This document shows positions 7,296-51,513 of a stretch of DNA of 64,000 nucleotides, piece after piece. A program made the position numbers and the translations under genes. Under the pieces are notes generated by a model that saw only the letters and a list, made by a program, of their open reading frames with translations, did no database searches and was not told the DNA's origin. Origin of the DNA: Candidatus Levyibacteriota bacterium (GTDB taxonomy: Bacteria > Patescibacteriota > Microgenomatia > Levybacterales > UBA12049); NCBI GenBank assembly GCA_038253825.1, contig JBBSGT010000002.1, forward strand, positions 685-64,684. Reading direction: 5' to 3'. Numbering within the stretch: position 1 is the stretch's first letter; each line of letters starts with the position of its first letter.

Positions 7296-7310
7296 GAGTA
7301 TTATAACAGA

Positions 7311-9714: not shown

Positions 9715-9718
9715 GTTT

Positions 9719-11519: not shown

Positions 11520-11593
11520 TAATTTGTTCGGTAGTGGTGCTTTGCTAGCACTTCAGTAAGGCACCCTACCAACAAAGAAAATAAGAATAGAGA

Positions 11594-13888: not shown

Positions 13889-14257
13889 TGTTGTCCCCAT
13901 TGTAGAAGTTTATTTTTTAGAAGACATTGCCTTTTTAGGAAAGTTGTTGGTATAAAGTACTGTTGCAAACCAACCCCAATTCTTATCATTGTAACTCTTT
14001 GACATCCTGCCAATAGCCACTTTTATTATACGTTTTTGTATATACTTCCGTTGCAATGTCATTTGATACTTTTGGATCTTATGACGCAAACACCATCATA
14101 GCAGCCGTATCATTACTCAGTGAATCATAGTCTACTGCTTTTTTACCAACTAGTAGATAAACCGGACAAAGATCACACAAAACAATGAGTTATATTACAA
14201 ATAGAATTTAAGTTAATAAATATCGTTATATGACGTTTGTAGGATAAATAAATAGTG

Positions 14258-15859
14258 CTAGTTTATTCGTTTAAATATGAGGATATCTTGGGAGGTGTAG
14301 ACTTTCTTAAAATATTTATAAAGATCACCTTGAATTTTTGAGTTATTGTAAATTGCAGACCAAACTGCATCATTCTTTTGCATGACAATCCAGGTTGCAT
14401 ATTTTTCGGGATGTTTTAGCGATTCATCCCAATATGGTTTGTTTCCTACATAAATTACCTTTTGCATAGGAATTGTGCTTTGGGTAATACTTATCGTCCG
14501 AGCATAATCGTCAATGAGTACGAATCCCCCATCGTAATGTTCGTTAATAAATTGCTCTACGTTGGTCGGAACTTTATTGGCTGAAAGGCCATGTGTACCA
14601 TCAGCAAGCGTTATGACAGGGGTATCGCCCATAAAGAAAAGTGCTGTTTGTAATATAAGTAACATGATAAGCACAAGTTTCAAACTCTTATGTACTCTTG
14701 CAACAAGATAGCCAAAGAATACAGCCATAAAAGGAATTATCATAACACCATAGCGAACATTGAATAAATGATAATCAAAATGCTGTGGTGTCAAACCAGG
14801 AATAAAGATAACTGCCTGACCCAAAAAGAGTGAGACTACGTTAAAAACAAAAGGAACAAATAAGACCAAGAGTGTTCCAATTCTTGCTTTAGCAGAATTA
14901 CTTGCCAGAAAAACTATCGACCCAACAAGAGAAATAACGAAAATAAAGAATCCAGTGTTTGCTAGTGCTGTGTAGACATAATAAATAATTGATAAGAGCA
15001 GGTTATGATATGCAGGTAATTCACCTTTTGCCATCCAAGCGAGTTGTTGAGATTTTGCAGAATAAATACTATCAGTAAAATATAAAGGATCACCCAAAAT
15101 TAAACCGCCCCAAACGAACCAGCAAAGGATACCAAATCCGGCCAGGGTCACAAACAAAATCATATCTCCTTTTTGTCTGACAAAAAGTTTACGATTAAAA
15201 ATACCAGGAGAGATAACAATAAGTGTTTCGAAAAGAACGAGAAACCAACCATCATATCGTGTTAAAGATGCACCGAAAGCAAAAAGACCTGCAAGTATCA
15301 GCGAGGATAAAACGTGATTTCCATGAAGGTATTTAACAAAATAATAAGATGACAAGATGAAGAAAGCAATAAGGGGTATTTCAGTCATTGGGGTTGATTG
15401 CAAATATAAAATATTAAGATTCGTGGCAAAAATGGTAAATGCAATAAAAGATGCAAAGTTATGTTGTGTGATGAGTCTTGTGAGTTTAAAGATATAAATA
15501 CAAGCAATGACATAAAAAATACCTGAGATCAGTGAACCTGCAAGACCTGTACGCCATAAAGGATCTGCTATAACAAATGGCAGCATTAAAATATGCGTCA
15601 TCGGTAACCAAATGCCACCGAGTTGCGCAAACCCAGGTGTTAAACCGTTCACTACTTTTTTAGCGATATTGATATGTGATTCAGCGTCGCCGTAAGCAAG
15701 TATCCAGTGATTGATATACGAAATATACGTAGCAATAAACGCAGCACATATCGACAGGAGAAAAATCATTTTTTCCATATTTGTCGAAAAGAAAAGTTTT
15801 ATCTTTTTATTGAAACTCTCCATAAATGTTTGTTGTCTGGTGATAATAAAACTTTGCAT
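14258..15859 (-). CDS. Polytopic membrane protein, family A paralog 1; putative GT-C-like glycosyltransferase.
   Basis: Carries the motif YGDAESHINIAKKVVNGLTPGFAQLGGIWLPMTHILMLPF shared with 27182, 48397 and 50008, about 11 transmembrane helices, and a soluble C-terminal domain. Confidence 0.65.
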   Translation of the reverse strand: MQSFIITRQQTFMESFNKKIKLFFSTNMEKMIFLLSICAAFIATYISYINHWILAYGDAESHINIAKKVVNGLTPGFAQLGGIWLPMTHILMLPFVIADPLWRTGLAGSLISGIFYVIACIYIFKLTRLITQHNFASFIAFTIFATNLNILYLQSTPMTEIPLIAFFILSSYYFVKYLHGNHVLSSLILAGLFAFGASLTRYDGWFLVLFETLIVISPGIFNRKLFVRQKGDMILFVTLAGFGILCWFVWGGLILGDPLYFTDSIYSAKSQQLAWMAKGELPAYHNLLLSIIYYVYTALANTGFFIFVISLVGSIVFLASNSAKARIGTLLVLFVPFVFNVVSLFLGQAVIFIPGLTPQHFDYHLFNVRYGVMIIPFMAVFFGYLVARVHKSLKLVLIMLLILQTALFFMGDTPVITLADGTHGLSANKVPTNVEQFINEHYDGGFVLIDDYARTISITQSTIPMQKVIYVGNKPYWDESLKHPEKYATWIVMQKNDAVWSAIYNNSKIQGDLYKYFKKVYTSQDILIFKRIN

Positions 15860-15863
15860 ACTT

Positions 15864-27192: not shown

Positions 27193-28810
27193 TATCAGAA
27201 CATTTTCATTACAATTTTCAATCAACAATAAACCCGTAGAGGCAGCAAAAAAGTTATTTGAAAATCATGCAACAGTCATCCTCTTTTTCATGTTGAGTAT
27301 GATTTCTATTGCGAGCTTCTTATACTTTCTTTCAAATCATTTAGGTGTTGCATACAATGATGCCAGGTCACATTTGGATATTGCCCGTCGTGTTGTCGAA
27401 AATCTTAAACCCGGATTTGCTCAGCTAGGGAGTGTTTGGTTACCGCTTCCTCATTTACTTGCTACGTTGACAGTTTGGAATGACACGATGTGGCATACAG
27501 GACTGGCTGGCGCATTACAATCAATGATTTCGTATGTTGCCACAGGTATTCTTATTTACCGCATTTTGCAAGCACTGGGCGTTACTCTTTATGGTCGATT
27601 AGTAGGTGTTATTGTCTTTGCTTTGAATTTGAATATTATTTACATGCAATCTACAGCGATGACGGAGTTACTGCTTCTCGGTACGATGACTGCCGGCGTC
27701 TATGAATTAATCCAGTGGCACAAAGAAGAAAAAATGACACGACTTCTTATGTCAGGATTGTGGATTATGCTTTCAACGATGATTCGTTATGATGGTTGGT
27801 TTCTCCTTTTCTTTGCCACCATATTGATTATCATTCAGACCATGCGAAAACATAATTATAAAACTACAGAGGGTGTCGTGGTAATCTTCGGAACCTTGGC
27901 TGGATTTGGTATATTCCTCTGGTTTTTCTGGAATTTGATAATTTTTAAAGATCCACTTTACTTTATCTTAGGACCTTATGCAGCGGGAACACAACAACAA
28001 CAGTTGGCTGATGCTGGTGTTCTTGCAACCAAGCATAACCTGCCATTCTCACTCCAAACTTATATCTACGCTATCTTTTATAACAGTGGCGTCTTCACAA
28101 CGATTTTGGCATTTATAGGGGTTATTTTATTCTGGTTTGATAAAAAAATTAGTAAAGAGTTACGATATGCTGCAACTGCACTTTTAGCGCCATTTATATT
28201 CAATGTCCTTTCGCTTTACTTAGGACAATCAGTACTCTTTGTTCAAGGGTTACATGGAAATTCTTGGTTTAACGTCCGTTATGGTTTAATGATGATACCT
28301 TCAATTGCTGTATTTGTCGGTTATCTGACACAGCGAGTAAAACCAGTACGCTATGTCATTTTAGCGTTATTACTTTTTGTGACTTTTTTCAGTTATGTTA
28401 ATCGTGATGCCGTGACTATTGATGATGCTGTATTTGGTGCAAGTGGTAAAAATGTATCACAAGTTAGTAGCTGGCTGAATCAACATGTACCTAACAAGCC
28501 GGGATTTGTCTTAATATCAGTTGCTTCCCATGATGCTATTATTTTCTCTTCAGGTTTACCGATGAGCCGATTTATTCATGAAGGAACTGGTTTGTATTGG
28601 AATGCGGCTATAGCTCACCCTGTGCATTGGGCTCGCTGGATTATTTTGCGCACTGGTGATGCAAACGATCAAACATATAGATTATTGCATAATAATCGAG
28701 AATTCAAGAATGATTATACATTAACAGACCATTATCCTTTTGCTGACATTTATGAAATTAAGCCGCAATACGTGAAAGATCTTCACATCAAACCTTCCCT
28801 GGAACTCTAA
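27182..28810 (+). CDS. Family A membrane protein, paralog 2.
   Basis: Carries the family motif YNDARSHLDIARRVVENLKPGFAQLGSVWLPLPHLL. Confidence 0.65.
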   Translation: MHFNIRTFSLQFSINNKPVEAAKKLFENHATVILFFMLSMISIASFLYFLSNHLGVAYNDARSHLDIARRVVENLKPGFAQLGSVWLPLPHLLATLTVWNDTMWHTGLAGALQSMISYVATGILIYRILQALGVTLYGRLVGVIVFALNLNIIYMQSTAMTELLLLGTMTAGVYELIQWHKEEKMTRLLMSGLWIMLSTMIRYDGWFLLFFATILIIIQTMRKHNYKTTEGVVVIFGTLAGFGIFLWFFWNLIIFKDPLYFILGPYAAGTQQQQLADAGVLATKHNLPFSLQTYIYAIFYNSGVFTTILAFIGVILFWFDKKISKELRYAATALLAPFIFNVLSLYLGQSVLFVQGLHGNSWFNVRYGLMMIPSIAVFVGYLTQRVKPVRYVILALLLFVTFFSYVNRDAVTIDDAVFGASGKNVSQVSSWLNQHVPNKPGFVLISVASHDAIIFSSGLPMSRFIHEGTGLYWNAAIAHPVHWARWIILRTGDANDQTYRLLHNNREFKNDYTLTDHYPFADIYEIKPQYVKDLHIKPSLEL

Positions 28811-28833
28811 TTATTTTCGGGTATAATAAATAT

Positions 28834-29832
28834 ATGACCTTTACCCGGGGAGAAAAAATTTATATTTTCGTTACCTTTCTCGTTGGCATGAGTATTTTTT
28901 CCTTACTTATTTTGCCTAGCCAAAATAACAAACTCCATATGAAACAGACACAATGGCAAATACAATCAATTGATACTATGAAATATTCTCGTGATATGGC
29001 GAAATATAATGCGAGCAATGTGAAATATACTACTGAGGTCAAAAAACAAGTTGCAGATATTGCGAATACAGGCGCAAATTATATTGCGATTGATACGCCT
29101 TATGATGACGAATTTCTTCCGGTATTGAATTTATGGGTATACACAGCAAGAGAACATGGGTTACATATATGGTTCAGGGGAAACTGGTCAGGTTGGGAAG
29201 GTTGGTTTGGGTATAATCGCATTGATGAGCAAACACATCTAGCAAAAACAAAGCAATTTATTAAAGAAAATAAAGATCTTTTTCAAGATGGAGATATATT
29301 TAGCTCCTGTCCGGAATGTGAAAATGGTGATGCGAAGCTCAATTTAGCTAATCAGCAGTCAGTTGCTGCCTATCGACAATTTCTTATTGAAGAATATCAG
29401 GCAACCAAAGATGCATTTGTAGATATCCATAAAAATGTCGCCAGTAACTATTTTTCAATGAATACAGACGTTGCCCGAGAGATCATGGATAGAGAAACAA
29501 CTATTCAGCTTGATGGACTTGTTGTCATTGACCACTATGTTTTAACGCCTGAGCAATTGGCAAATGATGTTTCATTAATTGCTCTGCAAAGTGGCGGAAA
29601 TATTATGTTGGGAGAAATGGGTGCACCAATTCCCAGTATTCATGGCGCAATGACTGATGAACAACAAAGGCAATGGCTTGAGCAATCTTTACACGAGCTC
29701 TCTCAAATAGGTAAATTAAACGGCATAAACTACTGGGTTAATAAAGGTGGTTCGACCGCATTATGGAGACCAGATGGTTCTCCCAAGCCCGCCGTAGCCG
29801 TCATAAAATCCTATTTCACCAAAAACCAATAA
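28834..29832 (+). CDS. Secreted family B protein; putative clan GH-A-like glycoside hydrolase.
   Basis: Signal-anchor helix, the motifs WQIQSIDTMK, GANYIAIDTPYD and WFRGNWSGWEGWF, and candidate catalytic glutamates in CPECENG and GEMGAPIP. Confidence 0.55.
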   Translation: MTFTRGEKIYIFVTFLVGMSIFSLLILPSQNNKLHMKQTQWQIQSIDTMKYSRDMAKYNASNVKYTTEVKKQVADIANTGANYIAIDTPYDDEFLPVLNLWVYTAREHGLHIWFRGNWSGWEGWFGYNRIDEQTHLAKTKQFIKENKDLFQDGDIFSSCPECENGDAKLNLANQQSVAAYRQFLIEEYQATKDAFVDIHKNVASNYFSMNTDVAREIMDRETTIQLDGLVVIDHYVLTPEQLANDVSLIALQSGGNIMLGEMGAPIPSIHGAMTDEQQRQWLEQSLHELSQIGKLNGINYWVNKGGSTALWRPDGSPKPAVAVIKSYFTKNQ

Positions 29833-29936
29833 ATCTTATAAGACTTCTTTAGGCATCTCTATTCTTTGTACAAACCCATGTTATTTCTGGCTAAAGCTTT
29901 ACATTCTATGTACAATAAGTAATATAGTAATTCCCT

Positions 29937-29965
29937 ATTGACAATTATATATTACTCTGTTACAA
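29937..29965 (+). promoter_or_regulatory. Near-consensus sigma70-type promoter (TTGACA-17-TACAAT).
   Basis: TTGACA at 29937-29942, a 17-nt spacer and TACAAT at 29960-29965, about 60 nt upstream of the sortase-substrate gene. Confidence 0.5.
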
Positions 29966-30026
29966 TCCTCTTTACTAAACATATAGGTTTATTAAATTAT
30001 ATATAATCTATCTGTTAGAGAATACT

Positions 30027-30683
30027 ATGTATAAAAAAATATTATTAATGACACCAATCGCTGCGACACTCTTTATGAGTGCAGCTCTTCCTGTGTACGC
30101 AAATCCTATTCCACAATTCGGATCATGTGTTAATCCACAATGGGCACAAACTCAAGTTAATTATGGAGATAGTCATGGTGTCGTTGGTGTCAATAAATTT
30201 CCTGGTGTAGACAGTATTTATTCTTCAAATGGAAATACGATGCAATGCCTCTGTACGAATACAGGTGAAGGTTACCAAACAAATTGGTTAAAAGCCTCAA
30301 ACTATTCTCATGATCAAATTGAATCCTTGCAAGCACAAGGTTGGATCTATATATCGGAAGCAGAAGCTAAGGATAGCTGGGGTTTGGAATCAGGTCCTTA
30401 TCTTGCGAAAAATGAGACCTATGCATGCACAGCTTGTACACCAACTCCTACCGTAACACCCACAGGTACGCTTACTCCTACACCAACAGTGACAACACCC
30501 GGACCAACAGCAACACCAGGACCCGGCGCTACTGCAACGCCTGAAACAAAAGTACAAGGTGCCTCTGCAAACAACAATAATGTCTTGGCTTCCACAGGAA
30601 ATGCTTTAGTTATCTACGTTTCACTCCTTGCCGGAGCAGTATCCTTGATCTTGGGATTGTTCCTGAAAAAGTTTGGTAAATAA
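30027..30683 (+). CDS. Secreted Cys-containing surface protein with a Thr/Pro linker and a C-terminal LASTG (LAXTG-type) cell-wall sorting signal.
   Basis: Signal peptide (AATLFMSAALPVYA), six Cys residues, a TPTPTVTPTG linker, then LASTG followed by a hydrophobic helix and a KKFGK tail. Confidence 0.7.
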   Translation: MYKKILLMTPIAATLFMSAALPVYANPIPQFGSCVNPQWAQTQVNYGDSHGVVGVNKFPGVDSIYSSNGNTMQCLCTNTGEGYQTNWLKASNYSHDQIESLQAQGWIYISEAEAKDSWGLESGPYLAKNETYACTACTPTPTVTPTGTLTPTPTVTTPGPTATPGPGATATPETKVQGASANNNNVLASTGNALVIYVSLLAGAVSLILGLFLKKFGK

Positions 30684-31224
30684 AAGTATGAAACTGCTTG
30701 CCCGTCTCTTCATCATCGCTGGAATTTTTTTGTATGCTTTTGCTGTCTATCAAATTGCTTTGCGGGAAAATCCAAAACGTTTAGCGTTTGACAATTATAT
30801 CTACGGTCAAAACCACAGTGTTAATGATAAAAATCTTCCTACAGAAATTACTATAAAAGACCTCGATATTGATATTCCAGTGTATCCATCAATGGTAACA
30901 AACAATCAGTGGCAGACAACTAATGCCGGCGCATCTTATCTGACTTCTTCTCCTTTACCTGGGGCAAAAGGAAACAGTATTGTTTATGCTCATAATTGGC
31001 GAAGCCTTTTTGGTAATTTAGTTAACGCACACATTGGAGAACAAGTTAGCGTAACCTATCCAAATAAAACGAAGAAAATATTTGTTATTGCTTATACATC
31101 CGTTGTGTCACCTGACCAATCGACAATACTTGCTCCTTCAAATGACAAACGCATAACTCTTTATACCTGCACAGGTATTCTTGATTCGAAACGATTTGTC
31201 GCTGTCGCAATCCTCAAAAGTTGA
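30673..31224 (+). CDS. Sortase; the LAXTG preference of its neighbour suggests class E-like.
   Basis: Catalytic His context (VYAHNW), TLxTC active-site motif (ITLYTCTG), an N-terminal transmembrane anchor, and an 11-nt overlap with the substrate gene. Confidence 0.75.
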   Translation: MVNKSMKLLARLFIIAGIFLYAFAVYQIALRENPKRLAFDNYIYGQNHSVNDKNLPTEITIKDLDIDIPVYPSMVTNNQWQTTNAGASYLTSSPLPGAKGNSIVYAHNWRSLFGNLVNAHIGEQVSVTYPNKTKKIFVIAYTSVVSPDQSTILAPSNDKRITLYTCTGILDSKRFVAVAILKS

Positions 31225-31286
31225 AGCCCTACTCTCGTCAGAGCAAGGCTTCATAAATTCCTAGGAAAAAGATACGCTACTAGCTA

Positions 31287-31889
31287 TTAGTAAAGCGTAT
31301 TTGATGAACCATTAACATGGACAGTTACGTTAGATGTAACGTTTCCTGTACCAACTCCTGTTGTACCACCCGTGTTAAAACTTGAAGAATTACCTCCAGT
31401 CTTTGAGTGTGATGTGACACTTGTCCAGATGTAACTCAAATTTTGTTGAGCAACACTGACCCAGTTGTGATTAGATACGTTTACCTTGTTTGTAGATAAC
31501 GCACCATTGTGTGAAACAGTAACGTGAGTAGTGTTATCAGCTGGTGTCGGGACTATTGCAGTATTTGATGAACCACCAACAGTAACATTGACAGTACTGT
31601 TAGCATCTCCTGTGCCTATAATGGTACTTCCGCCGGTATTAAAATCAGCATTATTACCGCCAGTGTTTGCATGTGAGCTGACATCGGTTAAAACGGTGGA
31701 GTCATTATTTTGGGCAACAGTTGTATTGGTAGTATTACGTACCTGGACTGATGTGTCAGATAAAGCTCCATTATGAGAAACAGTTACATTCGTATTTGCA
31801 AAAGCTGCCGGAGAGACTGCCCCGAGAACAATTGCAGCAGTAGCAACTGCTGTTGTTAATTTAGCATTAAAATTGATCATTCTTTTCAC
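31287..31889 (-). CDS. Secreted N/T/G-rich repeat protein, a short paralog of 10278 and 11594.
   Basis: Signal peptide, the repeats VSHNGALS ... NTGGxxxDFNTGG ... TGDANSTVNVTV, and the same GGAGGTGAAAAGA RBS context as 10278. Confidence 0.65.
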   Translation of the reverse strand: MKRMINFNAKLTTAVATAAIVLGAVSPAAFANTNVTVSHNGALSDTSVQVRNTTNTTVAQNNDSTVLTDVSSHANTGGNNADFNTGGSTIIGTGDANSTVNVTVGGSSNTAIVPTPADNTTHVTVSHNGALSTNKVNVSNHNWVSVAQQNLSYIWTSVTSHSKTGGNSSSFNTGGTTGVGTGNVTSNVTVHVNGSSNTLY

Positions 31890-32263
31890 CTCCTTTCATT
31901 AGAATTTACTTCAAAGATTTTCGATTAGTTAGTATGCTTTTCAAAAAAAATAATTTGTCCTGTGTGTATTGAACCTATGAGCACTTATGAGAAATTTCTT
32001 GGCTCAATCTTCAAAGTGCAATACTATAAAAACAGAACAAACTCAGAGACAAAAGAGGCTGAGTTCCGCACTTCACAGAACCCAGCCTCAAGCACAAAAA
32101 AGCTTTTGAATTCCCCCAAAAACAGAACTCAAAAGCTTAAATAATTTCTACTTGGGCAGTTAATCATTTTGGTAAGTTTAGAATAAATTAATTGCTCTGC
32201 TTTGTCAATTGATGCAAATGTAATACAACTGTATCAAAGTATAATTTCTTGATAATCTTTGGC

Positions 32264-33094
32264 TTATTTGTTAACCTGAAGTATACAATGTAATCCATTA
32301 TGGTCAGAAAGATAGCTTTTTTTGCCACCAGCAAATCTCACAGGCTCGGTCAAAACCTGTGCATTTTTTGTAATTGTTAATTTTTTCGAAACTGTTTTCA
32401 GGAACATATAATCAATCACGGTGGAAGTGTGCGCTGTATAAAGATATTTGAAACGGTTAAAATAATATGTCACGGCTTCTTCTTTTGCGAAAATATCTTT
32501 TGCCTGCGTTGTCGATAAAAACGATTTATAAAGTTCAGAATATTTTCCTATGTTAAAATCACCCATGACAATAACTGCTGGTGATTTTTGAGAGTATTTA
32601 TTCATTTGTCTTGCCGCTTCTTCTGACTGACTTCGTATAAGCTTATAAAGCTTGTTTTTTGATGTTAAATCATGCTCAAGATCAGAGCTAAGATGTGTGG
32701 TGCATAACTTCAGCGCAAAGTCCTTTACGGTAGCAGAAAGCATGCCATTCTGCGCAATTTTTGTATAAAAAGGAATAGTTGCATTTGCTGGGTGAGTATA
32801 GGTAAAAAATTCTTGTTCGGATAACTGATATTTTGAAAAAATTGCCAAACCCCCACGAGGCCCCAAAATATTTTTGTGATATGCCACGTAAGGGAAACTG
32901 GATAATCTCTTTTTAAATAAATAAAAATTATAGTAACTGAAAAGCTCTTGTAAACAAACAATATCATATGATCCATGATTTATTTCTTGGGCAATATATT
33001 TGTAACGCTTTGTTATATCCGGAGCAAAAAAAGGCACTCCAAATGTATTAAGAGTAAGCAAAGAAAGTTGTGTTTTAGCTTCCATAGATGGCAT
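32264..33094 (-). CDS. Endonuclease/exonuclease/phosphatase (EEP) family protein.
   Basis: The motifs LTLNTFG, IVCLQE and GDFN and a C-terminal SDHNGL. Confidence 0.7.
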   Translation of the reverse strand: MPSMEAKTQLSLLTLNTFGVPFFAPDITKRYKYIAQEINHGSYDIVCLQELFSYYNFYLFKKRLSSFPYVAYHKNILGPRGGLAIFSKYQLSEQEFFTYTHPANATIPFYTKIAQNGMLSATVKDFALKLCTTHLSSDLEHDLTSKNKLYKLIRSQSEEAARQMNKYSQKSPAVIVMGDFNIGKYSELYKSFLSTTQAKDIFAKEEAVTYYFNRFKYLYTAHTSTVIDYMFLKTVSKKLTITKNAQVLTEPVRFAGGKKSYLSDHNGLHCILQVNK

Positions 33095-33160
33095 AGACTT
33101 GAAATTGATACGATAAAATTATACCATAGTGTTTTATGAGAAATTAGTGCACTGCGTTTT

Positions 33161-34135
33161 ATGAAAAAATTCTTTGGTTATTTTTTTGGCATCCTCACAC
33201 TAACACTTCTTCTGTCGGGAAGTGCATTGTGGTATTTATATGGAGCAGAGCTGCATAAATCATTTTCCGCTCTCTCTCCGGTTCCTGATTTTCTAATGCT
33301 TAGCAAAAATAACCAGGCAACACTCCTGGACCTTTGGTTTCCTGGTGTCCAGACAGTCCACGGAAATGGTGATGTCTCAGATCTTACAGCGCAGTCGGTT
33401 CTCATGTATGATCTGACCACTGATAAAATTTTATATGAGAAAGATCCAAAGCAACGACGACCAATGGCTTCACTTACCAAAATAATGACAGCAACTATAG
33501 CGATAGAAAATAAAAAGCCAGATGATAAATATCTTGTAACCAAAGACGATATTGTGGGAGAAGACAGTATGGGAGTAAGCTCAGGAGAGATATTATCCTT
33601 TGATGATTTGATTCATGGTCTGCTACTCCCTTCGGGTAATGATGCCGCAGAAGTATTTGCCCACAACTTCCCCACTGGCAGAAATGGATTTGTACAGGCA
33701 ATGAATAATAAAGCCCAAGCACTTGGCTTGAAAGATACACATTTCACTAATCCCTCAGGACTACAAGGAGATGGCAATCAGTACACAACGACTTACGACC
33801 TCCTTGTCATGACACGTTACGCTTTAGAACAATACCCGGATTTTTCCAATACTGTTGCCACAGCAACATATGATATTGCAGCGTCAAATAATCACAAAGA
33901 ATTTAACCTGGTAAATGAGACAAATCTTCTTACGACATATCCAGGTGTGAAAGGAGTAAAGACAGGTTATACGCCTGAGGCAGGTCTTTGTCTAGTTACC
34001 TATCTTGATTTTGAGGGACACCGAATTATTGGTATTATTTTAAATAGTCAGAACCGTCGAGGTGAAATGAAGGAATTACTTGATTATTCTTTACAAACTG
34101 TCGGAGTAACGCCACCTCCGTATCAGGATAATTAA
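33161..34135 (+). CDS. D-alanyl-D-alanine carboxypeptidase (S11 peptidase, PBP5-like).
   Basis: SxxK (ASLTK), SGN (LPSGND) and KTG (KTGYT) motifs with a signal-anchor helix. Confidence 0.8.
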   Translation: MKKFFGYFFGILTLTLLLSGSALWYLYGAELHKSFSALSPVPDFLMLSKNNQATLLDLWFPGVQTVHGNGDVSDLTAQSVLMYDLTTDKILYEKDPKQRRPMASLTKIMTATIAIENKKPDDKYLVTKDDIVGEDSMGVSSGEILSFDDLIHGLLLPSGNDAAEVFAHNFPTGRNGFVQAMNNKAQALGLKDTHFTNPSGLQGDGNQYTTTYDLLVMTRYALEQYPDFSNTVATATYDIAASNNHKEFNLVNETNLLTTYPGVKGVKTGYTPEAGLCLVTYLDFEGHRIIGIILNSQNRRGEMKELLDYSLQTVGVTPPPYQDN

Positions 34136-34169
34136 GATTCAGTATAGTACATGAATATATTTACCCTCC

Positions 34170-34823
34170 GTGCTATACTGGAGTTATATGACAGCCGCGC
34201 TTATTTCTTTTATTGATAAACTGCAAGACTTTTTAGCCAATTTTTTAGTAAGCCAAATTTATCTTGCACCGATTTTCATTTTAGTACTTGAAGAAATGGG
34301 TATTCCGCTTCCCTTTGCAGATGTCGTGATCGCATATACGGGTTATCAAGTTGCAATAGGACGTATTCCCTATTTTGTTGCTTATCTTGTCTTACTTGTT
34401 TCAGATATTTTGGGAGCAACTATTCTCTATCTTATTGCAAGACATTATGGAAGAAAAGTAATTGATAAATTTGGGAAATATATTGATCTTGATCAGAAAA
34501 AATTTACCGCTGTGGAAGAAAAGTTTCGTAAATATGGTCCAGTTGTGATTATTATCGGAAGACATATTATTGGTTTTAAAATCCCTATCACCCTCTTTTC
34601 CGGTATCTCGAAAATGCGTTATCGTACTTTTGCAATAAGTGTCCTGATCTCAGATAGTTTTTGGATTCCTTTCTATCTTTCACTTGGTGAAAAACTTGGA
34701 CCCAAGACACTTCATTTACTCCATGATCATCACTGGTATGTATTACTCTTCCTCTTTCCTATTATTGTCGCGATTATGCCGTTCTTCCTTATGCGCAAGA
34801 ATAAGCATTTTAATTTATTTTAG
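34170..34823 (+). CDS. DedA/SNARE-associated family membrane protein.
   Basis: DedA signature EEMGIPLPFADVV ... ARHYGRKVIDKFG. Confidence 0.7.
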   Translation: MLYWSYMTAALISFIDKLQDFLANFLVSQIYLAPIFILVLEEMGIPLPFADVVIAYTGYQVAIGRIPYFVAYLVLLVSDILGATILYLIARHYGRKVIDKFGKYIDLDQKKFTAVEEKFRKYGPVVIIIGRHIIGFKIPITLFSGISKMRYRTFAISVLISDSFWIPFYLSLGEKLGPKTLHLLHDHHWYVLLFLFPIIVAIMPFFLMRKNKHFNLF

Positions 34824-35061
34824 ATTTTACAAACTCACTTTTACTCATTAATAATTAAATTTCTATGAAAATTATCATCAGCTGACATTTGCGATGGAGA
34901 CAAATTTTAAAGAAATATCATGTCAAGGCCACTGTTTATATCATTACAGTATTTACAGATGGATTTGATTTCAGGAATCAAGCACAAGTGGCTACATCAG
35001 GATACATTTAAGGCGTAGTAAAATTGCTTAGAATGAAAGTAAATTACAAAAAGTAAAAAGT

Positions 35062-35070
35062 ATGCTATAA
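35062..35070 (+). promoter_or_regulatory. Extended -10 promoter element (TGcTATAAT).
   Basis: TG-n-TATAAT directly upstream of a Met-less zinc-ribbon reading frame. Confidence 0.35.
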
Positions 35071-35080
35071 TAGAGATATT

Positions 35081-35332
35081 ATTACGAAAGATTTAACTCA
35101 AAAGTGTTTTCAATGCGGTTCGCCTCTAATTCTGGTCAGTAAGACGACTAGTCAGGTAGAGGGTGTCCGTTATCCACAAACAACAACAATATACCGTTGC
35201 TCGAATACCTCATGTCAGGAAGAAAAAGATAAAGAGACAGCAAAAAGGATCAAACTTCGAGATGATAAAATAAAATCGGATAAAGTTCGCGCCGACAAAA
35301 AACTTGAAGACAAATTAGCGGCAGCTAAATAA
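35081..35332 (+). other. Possible small zinc-ribbon protein reading frame (about 83 codons) with no canonical start codon.
   Basis: Open frame ITKDLTQKCFQCGSPL...YRCSNTSCQEEKDKE...LAAAK* with CxxC...CxxxxC and a Lys/Asp-rich tail. There is no ATG, GTG or TTG in frame after the upstream stop at 35054. Confidence 0.25.
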
Positions 35333-35459
35333 TTAGACAAAAATAATAACGATCATAATAATCCCCAATACTGTAAATAATCCCACACTTACTTTTTTTA
35401 ATTCTTGACATAGGTGATAAATATTGCTTGAATTAAAAAAGGAAGAGTTTTCCCAGTAT

Positions 35460-37200: not shown

Positions 37201-37866
37201 ATGATAGATGGAGGAGAGGATACGGGTCCTTCGCAAGCAGAAGTAGGCTCAAATAAGGAAAAAAAGCCTGGATTAAGATTATCAAGATGGGTTCGTGGAT
37301 TGAGAGGAAATGTAGATCGGCAGGCTGCTCCGGTTACACCTGTTGTTCCATCAGAGCCTTCTCCTCTTTCAGTTGAATCCCCTGCGGCGCCATGGCTACA
37401 ATTACCACGAGCTGGCGTTTCTTCAGGTGAGCTACTTGAAACACCAGAGAATCAAGCTAGCCCTTTTGTAGTTGTAGGATTAACTGATATGGAAGATTTT
37501 TCTCTCGAAGGTTTCTCTAAAAAGATCGATGAAAATAACCTCATTGATCTAGATGATGCTATGGGAAGTAATATGAAATATATAGTTATACGTCAAGAGA
37601 ATGAAGATCAACCTCCTGCTGATGCTTTATTTGTCTTTTCTGAAGGCGTACAGCACGATAGATTCTTAGAACAATTAACATCAATTGGTTATACGGGAGA
37701 AGCGCAATCAGCCGGATTTTTAGGCCTTACAACTGGTGCCACTCCTTCTCTGTTACTTTCTTCTTCTTCCAGTTCGCTGGATGATAAAGGAGTTCTCTCA
37801 AATTCAGCGTCAAACACTTATAAAATCAATAATCTGGCAAAAAAGTTGGATGCAGATTTGGTTTAA
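37201..37866 (+). CDS. Hypothetical acidic protein.
   Basis: 221 aa intact ORF with a Pro/Ser-rich N-terminus and an acidic core; no recognisable motif. Confidence 0.4.
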   Translation: MIDGGEDTGPSQAEVGSNKEKKPGLRLSRWVRGLRGNVDRQAAPVTPVVPSEPSPLSVESPAAPWLQLPRAGVSSGELLETPENQASPFVVVGLTDMEDFSLEGFSKKIDENNLIDLDDAMGSNMKYIVIRQENEDQPPADALFVFSEGVQHDRFLEQLTSIGYTGEAQSAGFLGLTTGATPSLLLSSSSSSLDDKGVLSNSASNTYKINNLAKKLDADLV

Positions 37867-38238
37867 ATTTGCTTTTGCACTTATTTCTGAAAATAAATGG
37901 TTAGAATAAAATGGGAATAAATTCACTTTTAGTTAACTGATCCACATATTGATAAACTATGCACAATGTACATATCATTGACAATGGGATTACATAAAGA
38001 ATGAATTTGAAACAGAAAAAGTTTTCAAGACTTTCTTACAATTATTTACCTCAGTTAATGAAAGCAACGTTTGTTTGTAAAGAGAATTATTCTTGAACTC
38101 AAACCAATCTATCCCTGGTAACTAGTCGGAATAGTGTACGATTTCAGGAACTAGTAGCATGATATTCCGCAGCTCTATCTAATACGAATTGTTCGAATCA
38201 AGGCTCTCCAGCAAATAGGTTAGTCATAATTTACGAAA

Positions 38239-39403
38239 GTGGCTAAGCAAGCCGGAAAGAGAATAGCAATTTTGTTATATGAGGGTGCAAGCCTCAGTTG
38301 CGGAATAGATAGAAATAACCTAGAATACTATTCTGCTATTATGATTCCAAGAAAACGAACAGAAACTAGTATACCTCAGGCACTTACTGAATTTGGTGCA
38401 CAATTTCAAATTCCTGAAATACAACGCGTTGTTCCCTATGGGAAAGGGAGTATCAATGAAACATTTTTGGTCAAAACAAGTGGTTCACCTTTTATATTAC
38501 AACAGTTACGCCCAGCATATGACTACGGAAGTTTAGAAGACTACGAGGCTATCACTCAATGTGTTGATCGCGCAGGCATCATAACACCTCGTATCGTTCC
38601 AACAAAAACTGGCTTACTTGGTACAATAAAGGACAATCGTTTGTGGCGAATGACTTCGTTTGTGCCCGGTGTAACGCTAAAGCGAAGTCCCACATCTTCT
38701 CAAGTAAAGAGTGCTGCAGCATTACTAGGAAGATGGCATGAGGGGTTGAGTACGCTTGATTATGACTTTCACTTCAAGTTACCTGACTTTCATGATACTC
38801 CTAAAAAAATGATGGATTTACAAGCTGCACTAACAGCGACATGAAGGTACAGAAAAATACGAACAGCTTGCACCACTTGCCGAAGAAGTATTAACAGCTT
38901 ATGCTTCGCTAGGAGCTACAACTATACATTTACCTCGTCGCATTACCCATGGTGATCCAAACATTCATAATGTACGTTTTACAAATGATGGAGATAAAGC
39001 TATAAGTCTCTTAGATTTAGATACCCTAGGACATAATTCAGTGATTATCGATATTGCTGATGCTGTGAGAAGTTTGGCTCAGATAAAAGATAAGCACGCT
39101 CCTCACGATGCTCGATTCGATAGTGCTCTTTTCCAGCTTATACTTGATGGCTATAGAAACACTGCACATTTTTTGACACCTGACGAGCTTTATGCAATTC
39201 CAGATGGTGTTGAGCAATTAACACTTGAATTGTCAGCCAGGTATATTACCGATGCATTCGAGGAAATGTATTTCAGGCATGATCCGATGCAATATCCAAA
39301 TTTATTCGAACAAAACAAAGTAGATGCACTTATTCAACTCAATTTTTATCGTAGTTTTATAACGCAAAGAGCGGGCGTGGAAAGTATGATTATGCAATAT
39401 TGA
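38239..39403 (+). pseudogene. APH/choline-kinase/homoserine-kinase-II-like phosphotransferase interrupted by a single-nucleotide frameshift between about 38813 and 38838.
   Basis: Track ORFs 38239..38844 (frame 1) and 39041..39403 (frame 2) are joined by a stop-free frame-2 stretch 38834..39040 encoding ...ITHGDPNIHNVRF...LLDLDTLG. These are the Brenner HGDxxxxN and DxD motifs of the APH fold. Confidence 0.65.
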
Positions 39404-39706
39404 AGGTACGAGTGCATGTTTATAACAAGTACATTATTTTACCGCATCAAATACTTTATGTATCTCAACTCTTTGTTTGCGGCTTGCGATATGGAAAATT
39501 GTCATTAGGAAGTTTCGCATACCAACGAACTTAATCATTCCACAACATTGTGAAAATATCATATAATATTATTTCGATAAAAAATTCCAAAATTGTCAAG
39601 GCTCTCCAGCAAAAGAATTTTTCTTTAGATTAGCTTCAAAAATAGCACCAATTCTTATAAAAAAGCTCTGGATTCGAAGTATGAGCAAAAATTCTGATAT
39701 AATTTT

Positions 39707-40321
39707 TTGGATATGGAAATAATAATAATCGCTGGAGGTTCTGGATCCGGAAAGTCTGCTCTCGCATATACATTAGAAGATCATTATCCAAATGTGTTTG
39801 AAGTAATGAACTTGGACGATTACCACAAGCTGAAAACTTCTATTGGATTGCCAATGCTAGAGAATAAGATTAATTGGGATCATCCTGGTGTCATACAATG
39901 GGATAAGCTAATAAAAGACATTGCACTACTTCAAAATGGAAAGCCAGTTACCATTAATTCATGGAGTCATCGTTCTAATCGAGATTACTTTAAACATGGG
40001 AAAATGATACCTCGAACAATGGTTCCCAAAAAGGCACTCATCATTGAAGGAAATATGGTTCTTTGGAATAAACAAATCAAGGATTTAAGTAGTAGATCAT
40101 ATTTTTTAAATCTCGATGACGAAACTCGAATGAGGCGTAGAAATAAATTTATCGATCCTGATTATGATAGTAAAGTTCTTCAACCTATGCATAAAATGTA
40201 TGTAGTTCCAACGATGTCCTACGCAGATATAATACTTAATGTTACAAAAATGAATCAAGCAGAAGTTTACTTTAATATTGAACACGATTTAAAAGAAACT
40301 TACACATTTCTTCAAGCATAA
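39707..40321 (+). CDS. Uridine kinase/phosphoribulokinase-family P-loop kinase.
   Basis: P-loop IIAGGSGSGKSALA and the NWDHPGVIQWDKL ... NGKPVTINSWSHRSNRD pattern, which matches Udk-like NFDHPDAFD ... GKxVxxPxYxFxxHxR. Confidence 0.65.
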   Translation: MDMEIIIIAGGSGSGKSALAYTLEDHYPNVFEVMNLDDYHKLKTSIGLPMLENKINWDHPGVIQWDKLIKDIALLQNGKPVTINSWSHRSNRDYFKHGKMIPRTMVPKKALIIEGNMVLWNKQIKDLSSRSYFLNLDDETRMRRRNKFIDPDYDSKVLQPMHKMYVVPTMSYADIILNVTKMNQAEVYFNIEHDLKETYTFLQA

Positions 40322-40735
40322 AAAGCTCCAAGCTCGTCAAGGCTTGCCTGCAAACGGCCGCAGGTATATATATTCTACTTTGTTTGCTATACCTCAGAAG
40401 TGAACGATTTAGTATTCAGTTACTATCGCGATTCAATTTATGAATAAGTATAGGTACCTCATAATATAGCTTTAGAAGAAGCAGATGCTTTTGCGAAGAG
40501 TGGTTCTTGGGACGAAGACCTGAATAATATTCAAACAGTTTATCTAAGTGATGGTGTATTTTTAATAGGACCAGTGGGAATTTGCATAGTAGCTATGGGC
40601 GCAATTAGGAAACTTTCTGAAACCATTTGGGAAATTAAACGAATGAGAGCATGAACTACTATTTGGAAAATCCCTATGATATTCCGCAGCTTTTTCTCAA
40701 ATGATAAGTTCAAATCAAGGCTCTCAGCCACCGTT

Positions 40736-41887
40736 TTATTTAGCACTTTCTTTAAAAAGAACTATGTATTTTTTATATTCATATGACTGACCATACTTTT
40801 CATCCTGATTTCTTGGTGTAAGAATATCCATTTCAATAAATCGGTCTATCACACGTTGCGCTCCTGCTCGAGTATATCCTGTCCATTTTATAATGGTGGC
40901 CACATTGACAATGGGTTGTACATATAATTTCGGTAAAATTATTGCGGCGTTTTCAGATGCTCGAGTTCCAAGCTTTTGTATTTTCTGCATATCGTTCTCG
41001 CGCAATACAGTAATTTTACCAACAATATCTATTGCTTCATTTGCAATTTCAATGACACCATCTAAAAAGAACTCTACCCATTCAGAAACGTTACCATTAT
41101 GATATCTATAGAGTTTTTCATAATAAATTTCTTGAAATTTTTTAAAATATGAAGACAAAAATAGAACAGGCTTTTCTAAAAACTCTTCTTTCCAAAGATA
41201 AAATGTTATTAGCATTCTCCCTGTCCTCCCATTACCATCAAGAAATGGGTGGATTGTTTCGAACTGTGCATGAATGAGTGCTGCTTTTATAAGTGTAAGT
41301 GTTGTTCCATTTTCATATATATACTTTTCAAGATCACTAAGAGCACTTTTCATCTCTTCAATAGGTGGTGGAACAAAACGCGCATTATCTGGTTTTGTTC
41401 CACCAATCCAGTCTTGACTTTTCCTGAATTCACCTGGGCCAGAAAAGTGTGTTGCTCTTGCTTGCTCCATTAATTTTTTATGTAGTTCTCTTATGAATCG
41501 AAGAGATACGGGGAAATTATTACTTGCAACTCTTGTCATGCCATAATCGAGTGCCTTTATATAATGGAGAATATCGTCTACGTCTTCAGGTAAATTTGTA
41601 TTAATATTTGCATCTGCTTCTATTGCATCAATCATCGTCGCTCGGGTCCCTTCAATCTGGCTTGATGAAGCTGCATCTTTTCTGAGATACATAAGTAGGA
41701 AAAAATCAGCGTCAGGTAAGAGTTTAGTTATACCATCTAGCTTTCCAAGCAGTCTTGATGCCTGTTCATTTTTTTTCAAAATCTTTGCATCAAAAAAGAA
41801 TCCTTCTTTAGGCGGGAAGGGTTCGGGAATAAAAGCTTTAAAGCCGCCTGGTTGTTCTTTATTTGCTCCTATTTTTATATTTTTCAT
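40736..41887 (-). CDS. Fic family protein (AMPylase/adenylyltransferase-like) with an N-terminal inhibitory helix.
   Basis: Fic motif HPFLDGNGRTGR and an upstream SxxxEG inhibitory motif (SSQIEG), i.e. class II Fic architecture. Confidence 0.85.
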   Translation of the reverse strand: MKNIKIGANKEQPGGFKAFIPEPFPPKEGFFFDAKILKKNEQASRLLGKLDGITKLLPDADFFLLMYLRKDAASSSQIEGTRATMIDAIEADANINTNLPEDVDDILHYIKALDYGMTRVASNNFPVSLRFIRELHKKLMEQARATHFSGPGEFRKSQDWIGGTKPDNARFVPPPIEEMKSALSDLEKYIYENGTTLTLIKAALIHAQFETIHPFLDGNGRTGRMLITFYLWKEEFLEKPVLFLSSYFKKFQEIYYEKLYRYHNGNVSEWVEFFLDGVIEIANEAIDIVGKITVLRENDMQKIQKLGTRASENAAIILPKLYVQPIVNVATIIKWTGYTRAGAQRVIDRFIEMDILTPRNQDEKYGQSYEYKKYIVLFKESAK

Positions 41888-41927
41888 AGTTTATATCCTT
41901 TCAATAATGCATACAAAGTATATAGTT

Positions 41928-41958
41928 TTGTATCTATTAAGTCAATTGATAGATACAA
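41928..41958. promoter_or_regulatory. Perfect 10-bp inverted repeat (TTGTATCTAT-N11-ATAGATACAA) upstream of fic.
   Basis: The two arms are exact reverse complements; the repeat lies 40-70 nt upstream of the Fic start codon and is operator-like. Confidence 0.4.
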
Positions 41959-42392
41959 ACTTGCAAAACGTGAAAAGTAGTTTTATATTCGGTGGACTGA
42001 TACTTATGGAGGAGCTTGTGATTCACAAGGTACCGGAACTATATGTTTAGGGTACAACACAGTAAATGTCTGTCGTCAATATAATGTAAAAGGAAAGGAC
42101 GCTGAAACGTGGTCGATTAATGAAGAATTAAACAAAAACACACATATTGGACTATTCATAAATGCGGTTGCAAATAATCCTGCCAGTATAAACAGGCAAA
42201 CTATTTTATCAATGATTTCCTCTTTTAAGTTTCTCAGTCAAATACCTAAAAAGTAATTGTTTTATATAAAATGGTATATAAAAAGTTACACTGTTTCTTA
42301 AGGCTCTAGCCAATCAAAAATTCTAAAATCTTCTTTGATGTCCTGCAAAATAAGTAAATTCAAATAAAATTGAGCTCAAACCTGTCAACTTG

Positions 42393-42466
42393 TCGGGGAC
42401 AGAGGACTCGAACCTCCGACCTCACGGTCCCAAACCGCGCGCTCTAGCCAACTGAGCTAGTCCCCG
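42393..42466 (-). tRNA. tRNA-Pro (anticodon TGG).
   Basis: Reverse-complement cloverleaf: acceptor CGGGGAC/GTCCCCG, D-arm GCTCAGTTGGCTAGAGC, anticodon loop TTTGGGA, T-loop TTCGAGT; no encoded CCA. Confidence 0.85.
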
Positions 42467-42516
42467 TTATCGTTGAATTATAACATTTTCGTAAATCTTT
42501 GGCAAAAGCTGAAAAG

Positions 42517-43248
42517 CTACCTATTAGGTCCTACAAATAATTTTCGATGATGTGTAACGCTTTTTACCCAGGTTTTTAATCGCCAAACATGTTTTTTTGT
42601 GTTCTCAAGAAAAGCTCTAGTCGATATTCCTGCAATAAGATCTCGATCAAAGAGTATAATACCATACTGAGAGATATGTAACGCTAGATCGACATCTTCA
42701 TGTACTTTGTAACTATCATGACAAACATCGTTTTTTACTTTTTGCCATGCATGCTTTGTGATAACCATATTTGAACCAAATAATGTTTCATGACCGAGCA
42801 TGATTTTGCTTACTGCGAAGAAACCATAACGTGAAGTGATATCACTCGTTATTTTTCTTAGAGTGCTATCCTGAACAGCGTAAAAATATTGTGGGCCTGA
42901 GACTCCAACAATATCTTGGGCTCTGTTATCAAGTATTCTATGGACTTTCTCAACCCAGTCAATTGGTATACGAGTGTCTGCATCAATTCGTGCTAACAAG
43001 TCCCCCTTTGCAGCATTAAAACCAGCATCACGAGCTGGAATCATCCCTTGTTCGGTTTCATTTATAAGAGTAACGAATGGAAAAGTTTTGGCTATTTCTG
43101 CTGTTTTATCAGTAGAATTATTGTTGACGACAATGACTTCATCAGGGGGAAAGGTTTGTTGTTGTATTGCTTCCATGCATGATCCAATGTACTCCTCTTC
43201 ATTGTATGCAATGACGATAAGAGACAATGCGGGTATATAATGTCGCAT
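42517..43248 (-). CDS. Family 2 glycosyltransferase.
   Basis: [14 protein letters not shown] and DAD/DxD motifs. The track N-terminus (to 43329) runs through tRNA-Leu, so the start was moved to the Met at 43248 ([10 protein letters not shown]). Confidence 0.7.
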
Positions 43249-43260
43249 GGTATACACGAG

Positions 43261-43343
43261 TGCCGCGAGCGAGAGTCGAACTCGCACGCCCTTGCGGACG
43301 GGGGCTCTTAAGGCCCCTGTGTCTGCCATTCCACCACCGCGGC
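43261..43343 (-). tRNA. tRNA-Leu (anticodon TAA), type II with a long variable arm.
   Basis: Reverse complement GCCGCGGTGGTGGAATGGCAGACACAGGGGCCTTAAGAGCCCC..., with anticodon loop CTTAAGA, a long variable arm and T-arm GCGAGTTCGACTCTCGC. Confidence 0.85.
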
Positions 43344-43408
43344 AAAGTGCTATGCTATTTTAACTCAAACGCATGTGATTATTCAAGCCACAAGCAGTAT
43401 TTGATCTA

Positions 43409-50007: not shown

Positions 50008-51513
50008 ATGAATAATTCGAATATAATGAATAAGCTAATATTGTTTATCGCAACAATAGTATCGTTGACTTCATTATACTTCTCATTCAATCTTCACTAC
50101 ATCCTCACTTATAATGACGCTGCTTCGCACTTAAATATTGCTCGACGAATGGTGGATAGTCTTACGCCTGGAGTTGCTCAGATTGGGACGGTTTGGTTAC
50201 CTTTACCTCATTTACTTATGTTGCCCTTTGCAATGAACGATTTTCTTTGGCATACCGGGCTTGCGGGAAGTATTGTATCAATAATTGCCTTTATTGCTGG
50301 AGTGTCCTTTCTTTATAAACTTCTGTATATTCTCACCGAAAATATATGGGGTTCTGTAATTGGGACTCTTATTTTTGCTTTAAATCCCAACTTACTATAT
50401 ATGCAAACAACCCCTATGACAGAGACGCTTCTTATTACAGCCATAGTTATATCAATTTATTATCTCGCAAAGTTTTCAAAAACTTATGACATAAATGACC
50501 TAATTCTGTGCAGTGCCTTTGTGTCCGCTGCCACTCTCATTCGTTATGATGGTTGGTTTCTTTTTGCTTGTTTGAGTATATTACTGCCTATCTGGCTTTC
50601 TGTCGTAAGGGGAAGAAGAAGGGCTGAAAGTTCATTTATTTTGTTTGTTGCTTCGGGCGGGTTTGGCATTTATCTCTGGTTTCTATGGAATTATTTTATT
50701 TTTGGAGATGCGTTGTATTTTATAACCGGTCCTTATTCAGCCGCCGCCCAACAGAAAGTGTTACAACAAGTTGGACAACTACCAACCCAACATAACATCT
50801 ATCTCGCCGGATTGTATTATATATGGGCTGTCATTAATAACAACGGTATGTTGCTTACCATAGCGGGCTTTATAGGTATATGCATTGTGCCATTTATTCT
50901 TAGAAAGAAAAGCCAATTACTTGTATTATTTGCTATCATTTCACCTATTATCTTTAATATCATTGCCTTATTTTTAGGTCAATCTGCAATGAATGTTCCA
51001 CAAGCACCCACAAATCCTGGTATGTTTAATATCCGATATGGTATGATGGCATTACCCGCAATTGCTGTGGTGCTTGGTATTGTTGCTTCCAACAAATATG
51101 CTAGGATAATCGTACTTTTCCTACTGATAGCGCAAAGCTATCTCTTTGTTATACAAGGTGTCCCAGTCACATTGGCAGATGGATTACATGGGTTACAGGA
51201 GACATACTATACTATTGAAGCAAGCAAATGGTTGGCAGAGCATTATAAAGGAGGTCTGATTTTGACAAGTCTTGCATCCCATGACGCATTTGTTGCCAGA
51301 GCAGGGATACCCATGAAAAATTACATTCATGAAGGCACTCGTAATCACTGGACAGATGCTTTAAGAGAGCCTTCAAAAAGCGTGCAATATATTGCTGTTC
51401 TTAGCTACCCGCCAGACAGCGTCTATCGAATACTATATAATAATCCCGATTTTTTAGAGAATTATGAAATTATACATACCTACAAGAAATTTGATATATA
51501 TGAGAAGAAGTAG
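50008..51513 (+). CDS. Family A membrane protein, paralog 4.
   Basis: Carries LTYNDAASHLNIARRMVDSLTPGVAQIGTVWLPLPHLLMLPF. Confidence 0.65.
   Translation: MNNSNIMNKLILFIATIVSLTSLYFSFNLHYILTYNDAASHLNIARRMVDSLTPGVAQIGTVWLPLPHLLMLPFAMNDFLWHTGLAGSIVSIIAFIAGVSFLYKLLYILTENIWGSVIGTLIFALNPNLLYMQTTPMTETLLITAIVISIYYLAKFSKTYDINDLILCSAFVSAATLIRYDGWFLFACLSILLPIWLSVVRGRRRAESSFILFVASGGFGIYLWFLWNYFIFGDALYFITGPYSAAAQQKVLQQVGQLPTQHNIYLAGLYYIWAVINNNGMLLTIAGFIGICIVPFILRKKSQLLVLFAIISPIIFNIIALFLGQSAMNVPQAPTNPGMFNIRYGMMALPAIAVVLGIVASNKYARIIVLFLLIAQSYLFVIQGVPVTLADGLHGLQETYYTIEASKWLAEHYKGGLILTSLASHDAFVARAGIPMKNYIHEGTRNHWTDALREPSKSVQYIAVLSYPPDSVYRILYNNPDFLENYEIIHTYKKFDIYEKK

Follow-up and report, generated by a model that had tools for sequence, protein, structure and literature searches.

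What kind of repeat would flank every gene of one short chromosomal segment? The question is raised by the stretch at 38.1-42.4 kb of a 64-kb window (the whole piece of DNA that was analysed, ~36% G+C, whose positions are used throughout) from contig JBBSGT010000002.1 of a Candidatus Levyibacteriota bacterium, a member of the candidate phyla radiation (CPR, Patescibacteria). The first-pass annotation had described a five-copy intergenic repeat there, and had taken it for a dispersed element or a shared regulatory site. The answer we favour, with a probability of about 0.7, is that the repeat units are scars of attachment (att) sites of a large serine recombinase (LSR), which mimic the end of tRNA-Gln and were left around cargo genes when the recombinase was lost. 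The units are homologous to sites beside LSR genes in other loci, they come in two spacings, and the window contains no LSR gene. From these observations we infer an order of insertion events, deletions that would have started at the crossover core, and sites that an LSR encoded elsewhere in the genome might still recombine.

The repeat is real and has six copies, lettered A to F from left to right, all on the + strand and confined to 38.1-42.4 kb. The five copies first listed stood, with coordinates that were off by a few bases; unit F is an addition, and the copies proved uneven in quality. The units are as follows, with the spacing counted from GTTC to CAG, and the type of each putative half-site as taken up below.

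38159-38215, + strand: unit A, putative attB-type half-site; T-loop-like GTTCGAAT, CAAGG, CTCTCCA, G and CAAA; spacing 21 nt
39577-39613, + strand: unit B, putative attP-type half-site; box AAAAAATTCCAA, a 5-nt insert, then TCAAGGCTCTCCAG followed by CAAA; spacing 26 nt
40318-40354, + strand: unit C, putative attP-type half-site; spacing 26 nt; overlaps the stop codon of a udk-like gene
40676-40730, + strand: unit D, putative attB-type half-site; spacing 20 nt (1-nt deletion in the core); long arm as in A
42278-42313, + strand: unit E, degenerate and putatively attP-type; spacing 25 nt; core CTAGCCAA
42314-42349, + strand: unit F, putative attP-type half-site; AAAAATTCTAA, then CCTG followed by CAAAA; spacing 26 nt; immediately after E

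Units A and B share the exact 18-mer TCAAGGCTCTCCAGCAAA (38198-38215 and 39596-39613), which has four matches in the window at up to three mismatches, against 0.62 expected. The two longest copies, A and D, agree over 54 nt at 82% identity, much as the earlier figure of 55 bp at ~80% had it, and the 32-nt arm upstream of unit A is also present in D. Aligning the five copies first listed gives a unit of ~37 nt, ATAAAAAGTTCNAA(0 or 5 nt)TCAAGGCTCTCCAGCAAA, and similarity between units ends sharply past CAGCAAA. Left out of the profile one at a time, A, B, C and D were each the best match outside the training set (E = 0.019, 2e-4, 0.12 and 0.11), and unit F, at E = 0.017, scored above unit E. As had been stated, neither pattern nor profile searches found a further copy in the other ~60 kb of the window. 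Two weak inverted unit-like matches at 51312-51392 (E = 0.3 and 1.1), inside an open reading frame (ORF) at 50008-51513, are probably due to chance.

The repeat does flank every gene in the segment. Unit A is followed by a broken APH-family gene, B by the udk-like gene, C by a gene fragment, D by a Fic gene and a second fragment, and E and F by tRNA-Pro. Unit D lies directly 3´ of the Fic stop codon (40736, - strand), and unit F is 43 nt from the 3´ end of tRNA-Pro.

Probable attachment sites of a recombinase family that meets tRNA-Gln

Read on the + strand, unit A has the parts of a tRNA 3´ end in order: a T-loop (TTCGAAT), a T-stem strand (CAAGG), an acceptor strand (CTCTCCA), G73 and CAAA. 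A manual count gave 21/25 identical positions against the 3´ end of the tRNA-Gln gene in locus L154 (loci used for comparison carry L numbers). The likeness is limited to the 3´-terminal ~25 nt, and does not extend to the arm upstream of the T-loop; neither ARAGORN nor the Rfam tRNA model (Rfam E up to 5) called a tRNA at any unit.

The link to a recombinase came from metagenomes. Scanning them with the 18-mer returned 60 loci, which is about the chance expectation, and in 58/60 the similarity ends at the 18-mer itself. The match extends further in the other two, L152 (Ga0364867_10218) and L115 (WNFI01159873.1), both of ~35% G+C. The long-form pattern of the unit had no match in the metagenomes. 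In the viral collection the 18-mer gave one chance coding match only, and the LSR described next gave no relatives.

Locus L152 is collinear with positions 27440-34807 of the window, at ~66% nucleotide and ~70% amino-acid identity, through genes for a sortase, a repeat protein, an S11 peptidase and a VTT protein. Past the VTT gene the two diverge. L152 continues with a polysaccharide deacetylase gene, a degenerate unit at 7810-7836 (L152a), a RibD_C gene, a second unit at 8531-8569 (L152b), and a convergent 538-aa ORF (8511-10127, - strand) with the Resolvase and Recombinase domains of an LSR. The 39-nt unit L152b (nhmmer, 2e-9) abuts or overlaps the 3´ end of the LSR gene, where it is read as the last codons ...YPVLLESLDDLRTFYQNNFAY; the window copies translate similarly on the - strand, unit B as LLLESLDNFGIFYRNNII and a stop. 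Over 50 nt this unit is 88% identical to unit B, well above the 66% of the housekeeping genes that the two loci share. In L115 the gene to the right of the unit, again RibD_C, is truncated at its 5´ end at the unit.

Homologues of the L152 LSR number in the thousands and are mostly nameless; those few that have a name are from CPR bacteria and further uncultured lineages. The closest (51-92% identity) belong to small elements, where a Phage_CRI replication gene directly precedes them. The LSR ORFs of L153, L154, L155, L157, L158 and L159 (51-86% identity to the L152 LSR) run at their 3´ ends, for ~60 nt, into an intact tRNA-Gln gene on the opposite strand. The junction is always ...A72 G73 followed by CAA and then (T/A)(A/T)C(T/A)GGATA, which are the codons of YPxLL read backwards. 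Tails with DSN, the translated complement of the T-loop, occur in 49/120 homologues (for example, LLRGEDSNLQP), and two LSRs that are 92% identical diverge directly past ...YPVLL. The tail past YPxLL thus differs with each insertion site, and is therefore read-through beyond the crossover and no protein domain; on the same grounds, we rejected the idea that the unit is the C-terminal remnant of a conserved domain. The family as a whole seems, from these junctions, to target tRNA 3´ ends.

Three side observations concern the family itself. Gene callers thus extend many of its ORFs into tRNA genes. Beyond the LSR/Phage_CRI element of L156, positions 8501-16361 hold PLD-like, M23 peptidase, VirB4/TraG-like ATPase and TrbC-like genes, which suggests a putative conjugation-type module beside the element. 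Cytochrome oxidase subunits COX1-4 are unexpected in CPR bacteria, and they are encoded on the contigs of L153-L155, where an LSR 86% identical to that of L152 stands beside tRNA-Gln; the element family may cross lineages.

What would distinguish a target site from an element's own site is the spacing between the T-loop box and the core. Sites fall into two classes by the distance from GTTC to CAG.

20-21 nt: three real tRNA-Gln genes, unit A and L152a (21 nt), and unit D (20 nt)
25-26 nt: units B, C, E and F, L152b, and the units of L156, L157 and L158

In serine integrases, the distal motif bound by the zinc ribbon domain lies 5 bp nearer the centre in attB than in attP half-sites (Rutherford et al., 2013; PMC3783163). 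The units have the same distal motif at two positions 5 bp apart, and with the published shift, the 21-nt class would therefore be an attB-type arm, and the 26-nt class an attP-type arm. In L156, L157 and L158, a 26-nt unit stands ~5-6 kb from the LSR 3´ end, in tRNA orientation, after the cargo (EamA in L156, an OLD-like nuclease in L157, and Mrr with RibD_C in L158) and thus where attR is expected. The far ends of these intact elements carried the attP-type arm only, and no direct repeat of the tRNA-Gln 3´ end. In L156 both element junctions share the core CCAGCAAAA (short common core CCAGCAAA(A)), and the right flank of its attR has an inverted T-arm at the attB distance. CCAG-CAAAA-CTGG dyad symmetry is present in both L152 and L156. 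A profile built only from the external 26-nt units picked out, as its top four in the window, B (3e-7), C (0.002), A (0.027) and F (0.18). In both L152 and L158, as in the window, at least one attP-type junction comes after an attB-type site.

A probable array of decayed insertions, and the readings that compete with it

These comparisons point to the following model. The units would be the left half-sites and crossover core of att sites for an LSR family common in CPR bacteria, whose members appear to ride small elements beside a Phage_CRI rolling-circle replication gene and to take the 3´ end of tRNA-Gln as their integration site. Each unit would imitate that end, with its T-loop box, T-stem, acceptor strand, G73 and CAAA. 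A and D would keep the spacing of the tRNA (attB-type), and B, C, E and F would have the box 5 bp farther out, as in the arm at the cargo end of an element (attP-type). The region at 38.1-42.4 kb could then be a junction array built by successive element insertions, with the surviving cargo after each junction. Deletions from the crossover core would have taken the recombinase and replication modules and left cargo next to an attP-type arm. This last step is proposed because similarity stops past CAGCAAA, the L115 gene is 5´-truncated, the ORF to the right of C is a short fragment, and we saw no trace of an LSR or replication (Rep) gene. The model also predicts that the tRNA-Gln of this genome ends in ...GGTTCGAATC..CTCTCCAG, i.e. 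...GGTTCGAATC(C/A)AGGCTCTCCAG.

Several points weigh against this model. Canonical attP x attB integration duplicates 2 bp only, and gives no arrays of attP-type junctions; such arrays would need non-canonical attP x attL/attR events or secondary deletions, which we assume. The whole 64-kb window has no LSR, Rep or tRNA-Gln gene, and the intact elements seen, which are few, carry no homologue of any cargo gene of the window. Among the window units, conservation does not extend to the right half-sites, and unit E, a weak copy, was not recovered by the leave-one-out profile search. With crossover in CAAA, the T-loop box would be a few bp more distant from the centre than is the motif of the LI integrase structure. 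The external support comes from six loci, of which L152 breaks off a little upstream of the start codon of its LSR, and to our knowledge, no att site has been defined experimentally for this LSR family.

If the model holds, an unexplained intergenic repeat becomes a readable integration history for a broken APH kinase, a udk-like kinase and a Fic protein. The sequence rule that it yields, a T-loop-like box 21 or 26 nt from CAG/CAAA, could help to locate elements of this type, whole or decayed, in other members of the Patescibacteria, a group in which mobile elements and the ways of acquiring genes have seldom been described. The LSRs and their predicted attB/attP pairs are also natural candidates for trial as integration tools.

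A variant in which the modules are still mobile draws on much of the same evidence. Here the units would bound single-gene cassettes without a recombinase, moved in trans by an LSR at tRNA-Gln-like sites. The modules of the window are compact, carry one gene each, mostly on the + strand, and have an attP-type unit within 0-45 nt after each. Elsewhere, RibD_C has a unit on either side in L152 and L158, and one before it in L115, and L152 has the order attB-type unit, RibD_C, attP-type unit, LSR. But the truncation of RibD_C at the L115 unit means that module boundaries are not conserved, the flanks of the cassettes have no homology from the core outward, and neither a circular form nor an empty site was seen. 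There are also no units around the closest homologues of the udk-like gene (56-58% identity, on three contigs). We therefore consider such cassettes unlikely. The same doubt attaches to the wider proposal of a CPR serine-recombinase cassette system, in which modules would be captured, stacked and released at tRNA-Gln-like sites by the LSR of a rolling-circle-replicon element. Mobility of the modules in trans would make this a new system of cassette capture, and a functional analogue of integrons or staphylococcal cassette chromosome arrays in a lineage with poorly known mobile DNA.

A different kind of enzyme is the next alternative. The units could be displaced tRNA-Gln 3´ fragments (attL/attR) from islands of tyrosine integrases that crossed over in the T-loop, one of which the L152 LSR then used as a secondary target. 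The T-loop is a common crossover region for tyrosine-integrase islands, and the tRNA-like part of the unit does begin there, with an arm upstream that is not tRNA-like. However, no tyrosine integrase was found in the annotated stretch of the window or in the related loci examined, in keeping with the earlier statement that the segment has no integrase, which holds for the whole window. Moreover, the form shifted by 5 bp resembles LSR attP arms and sits at the far end of three LSR elements. We regard this explanation as decidedly improbable. The tRNA genes at the right edge of the segment had themselves been proposed as integration targets, and this part of the earlier view was not supported. 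The repeat is unlike the 3´ end of tRNA-Pro, which we rejected as the att source, and it mimics that of tRNA-Gln, the target of the associated LSR family.

One of the two explanations originally offered was a shared regulatory site, and we give very little credence to an operator, promoter element or terminator that would serve the accessory genes. In its favour, the distance from A and B to the + strand genes downstream is 25-125 nt, and C overlaps a terminator-like hairpin. Yet promoter and terminator scans of the units were at background, the hairpin at C is built from C's unique right flank, and the placement of the units relative to genes is inconsistent, upstream of some, directly downstream of others, and behind Fic on the opposite strand. 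In L152, in addition, the homologous unit is translated as part of the LSR, at the gene's 3´ end. Compared with shuffled sequence, no copy has a significant fold on either strand (z-scores -1.4 to +1.2), an inverted-repeat search found no arm pair within or immediately around a single unit, and the only Rfam matches are the four tRNAs, with none to a unit at the gathering threshold or at E up to 5. On the missing fold and Rfam match we ruled out a structured RNA, a repetitive extragenic palindromic (REP) sequence and an integron attC site.

The other original explanation, a dispersed element akin to REP sequences or miniature inverted-repeat transposable elements, is the least credible of all: its copies would be expected to be short, intergenic and in one orientation, as these are, but there is no palindrome, stable hairpin, terminal inverted repeat or target duplication at the units, and further copies were seen neither in the remaining 60 kb of the window nor in the 1.3 Mb of CPR loci from elsewhere. 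Two further repeat classes were set aside. The copies are 0.4-1.6 kb apart, unlike an array of clustered regularly interspaced short palindromic repeats (CRISPR), and the A-D mismatches extend beyond adenines (judged by eye), unlike template and variable repeats of a diversity-generating retroelement.

Genes of the segment and its surroundings

Pfam and tRNA calls agree with the gene content first described, a frameshifted kinase, a udk-like kinase, a Fic protein and tRNAs. From left to right, the features other than the units are these.

34824-35423, + strand: non-coding stretch of 600 bp with a polysaccharide deacetylase remnant (KYHVKATVYIITVFTDGFDF); left edge of the variable region
38239-39403, + strand: APH-family phosphotransferase pseudogene, frameshifted within 38834-38844; between units A and B
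39707-40321, + strand: PRK/uridine-kinase-like (udk-like) P-loop kinase, intact (Pfam); between units B and C
40454-40654, + strand: 66-codon open frame without a family assignment; between units C and D
40736-41887, - strand: Fic protein (Fic_N and Fic by Pfam, with the HPFLDGNGRTGR motif); between units D and E
41981-42256, + strand: 91-codon open frame without a start codon or Pfam match; 3´ gene fragment
42392-42466, - strand: tRNA-Pro(TGG); right boundary of the segment, unrelated in sequence to the repeat
43260-43343, - strand: tRNA-Leu (tRNA call)

The segment is variable and accessory, as first thought, and bears marks of site-specific integration. Collinearity with L152 is lost at 34.8 kb, where the window keeps, at ~34.9 kb, only part of a deacetylase gene found whole in L152, the region 3´ of tRNA-Pro varies among relatives, and the segment holds a frameshifted gene and two fragments. 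The split of the APH gene is a true frameshift. Its two ORFs, in different frames and both Pfam APH, have open frames that overlap only at 38834-38844, an 11-nt stretch outside the nearby A7 run at 38804-38810. The sequence of the APH region is identical in two other assemblies, and is therefore no one-off assembly error. The 66-codon frame at 40454-40654 is probably a gene fragment; its reading as a 'GNAT fragment' was made by eye, was unconfirmed by Pfam, and was dropped.

The window is nearly identical to contig JBPCRD010000085.1 (GCA_050997215.1) and to the Logan assembly of SRR24807095. Over ~19 kb, the sole difference from both is at 37767, where a TCT (serine-run) microsatellite in a 221-aa ORF (37201-37866) is one unit longer than in the GCA_050997215.1 and Logan contigs.

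More distant relatives were approached through the flanking genes. The flanking 529-aa family-2 glycosyltransferase (GT2) led to 80 loci, the best relative being 76% identical. These loci, 1.32 Mb from other CPR bacteria, contained no unit, and the model built from external units found nothing below E = 0.1. Relatives of a DUF4382 protein (best identity 60%) were not syntenic and had no units. Synteny through GT2 and DUF4382 was given up, the relatives being too distant and without units. In L162, a 57%-identical homologue of the udk-like gene lies in another accessory region (3088-8615), among genes for Fic, a GNAT acetyltransferase, an insertion sequence (rve) transposase and toxin-antitoxin pairs, with no repeat; functions are mixed there much as in the window segment.

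Downstream of tRNA-Pro, relatives differ in what they carry, a PIN/antitoxin pair in L006 and a 230-aa ORF, NDK-like by eye, in L037. In L006, L037 and L053 the tRNA-Pro and tRNA-Leu genes are 0-140 nt apart, next to an S11 peptidase gene. In the window, a family-2 glycosyltransferase gene at 42517-43254 separates them, which implies a likely insertion and inversion in this lineage.

Comparison with known integration systems

The sites most like these are the att sites of the large serine integrases of A118 (LI), Bxb1 and phiC31. The L152 recombinase has the same Resolvase and Recombinase domains, a distal motif of 7-9 bp is shifted by 5 bp between the two half-site types (PMC3783163), and the junctions of L156 share a short core. 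Unlike those systems, the target here appears to be the 3´ end of a tRNA gene, into the complement of which the recombinase ORF reads. The window also has left half-sites only, several in tandem and without a recombinase gene, and the system is known from sequence alone.

Islands linked to tRNA genes are likewise delimited by direct repeats that resemble a tRNA 3´ end, and enclose accessory DNA with decayed genes. The integrase implicated here is a serine rather than a tyrosine enzyme, no intact tRNA-Gln stands at the end of the array, and most of the repeats have attP-type spacing instead of being exact tRNA fragments. With the attC arrays of integrons the segment shares compact single-gene modules, mostly co-oriented, each followed by a repeat that resembles a recombination site. 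Integrons differ in the attC fold and in the IntI tyrosine integrase, neither of which was seen here, and the present repeats are conserved in sequence, not in structure.

The staphylococcal cassette chromosome (SCC, including SCCmec) offers the nearest parallel in overall layout, with accessory modules set apart by short direct repeats, each a copy of the target gene's 3´ end. SCC is driven by large serine recombinases (Ccr), and some modules lack a recombinase (pseudo-SCC) (PMC7029136; 10.1101/336396). Tandem modules and direct repeats of this kind are present here, with an LSR in the relative L152 and none in the window. The differences are of target, scale and carriage. The mimicked gene is tRNA-Gln here and rlmH in SCC, the host is a CPR bacterium, and the modules are single genes of 0.4-1.6 kb, where those of SCC run to many kb. 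The intact elements carry a Phage_CRI replication gene, and mobilization in trans is hypothetical here. On its sequence features, the segment is best read as a serine-recombinase composite island in a CPR bacterium, closest among known systems to SCC arrays.

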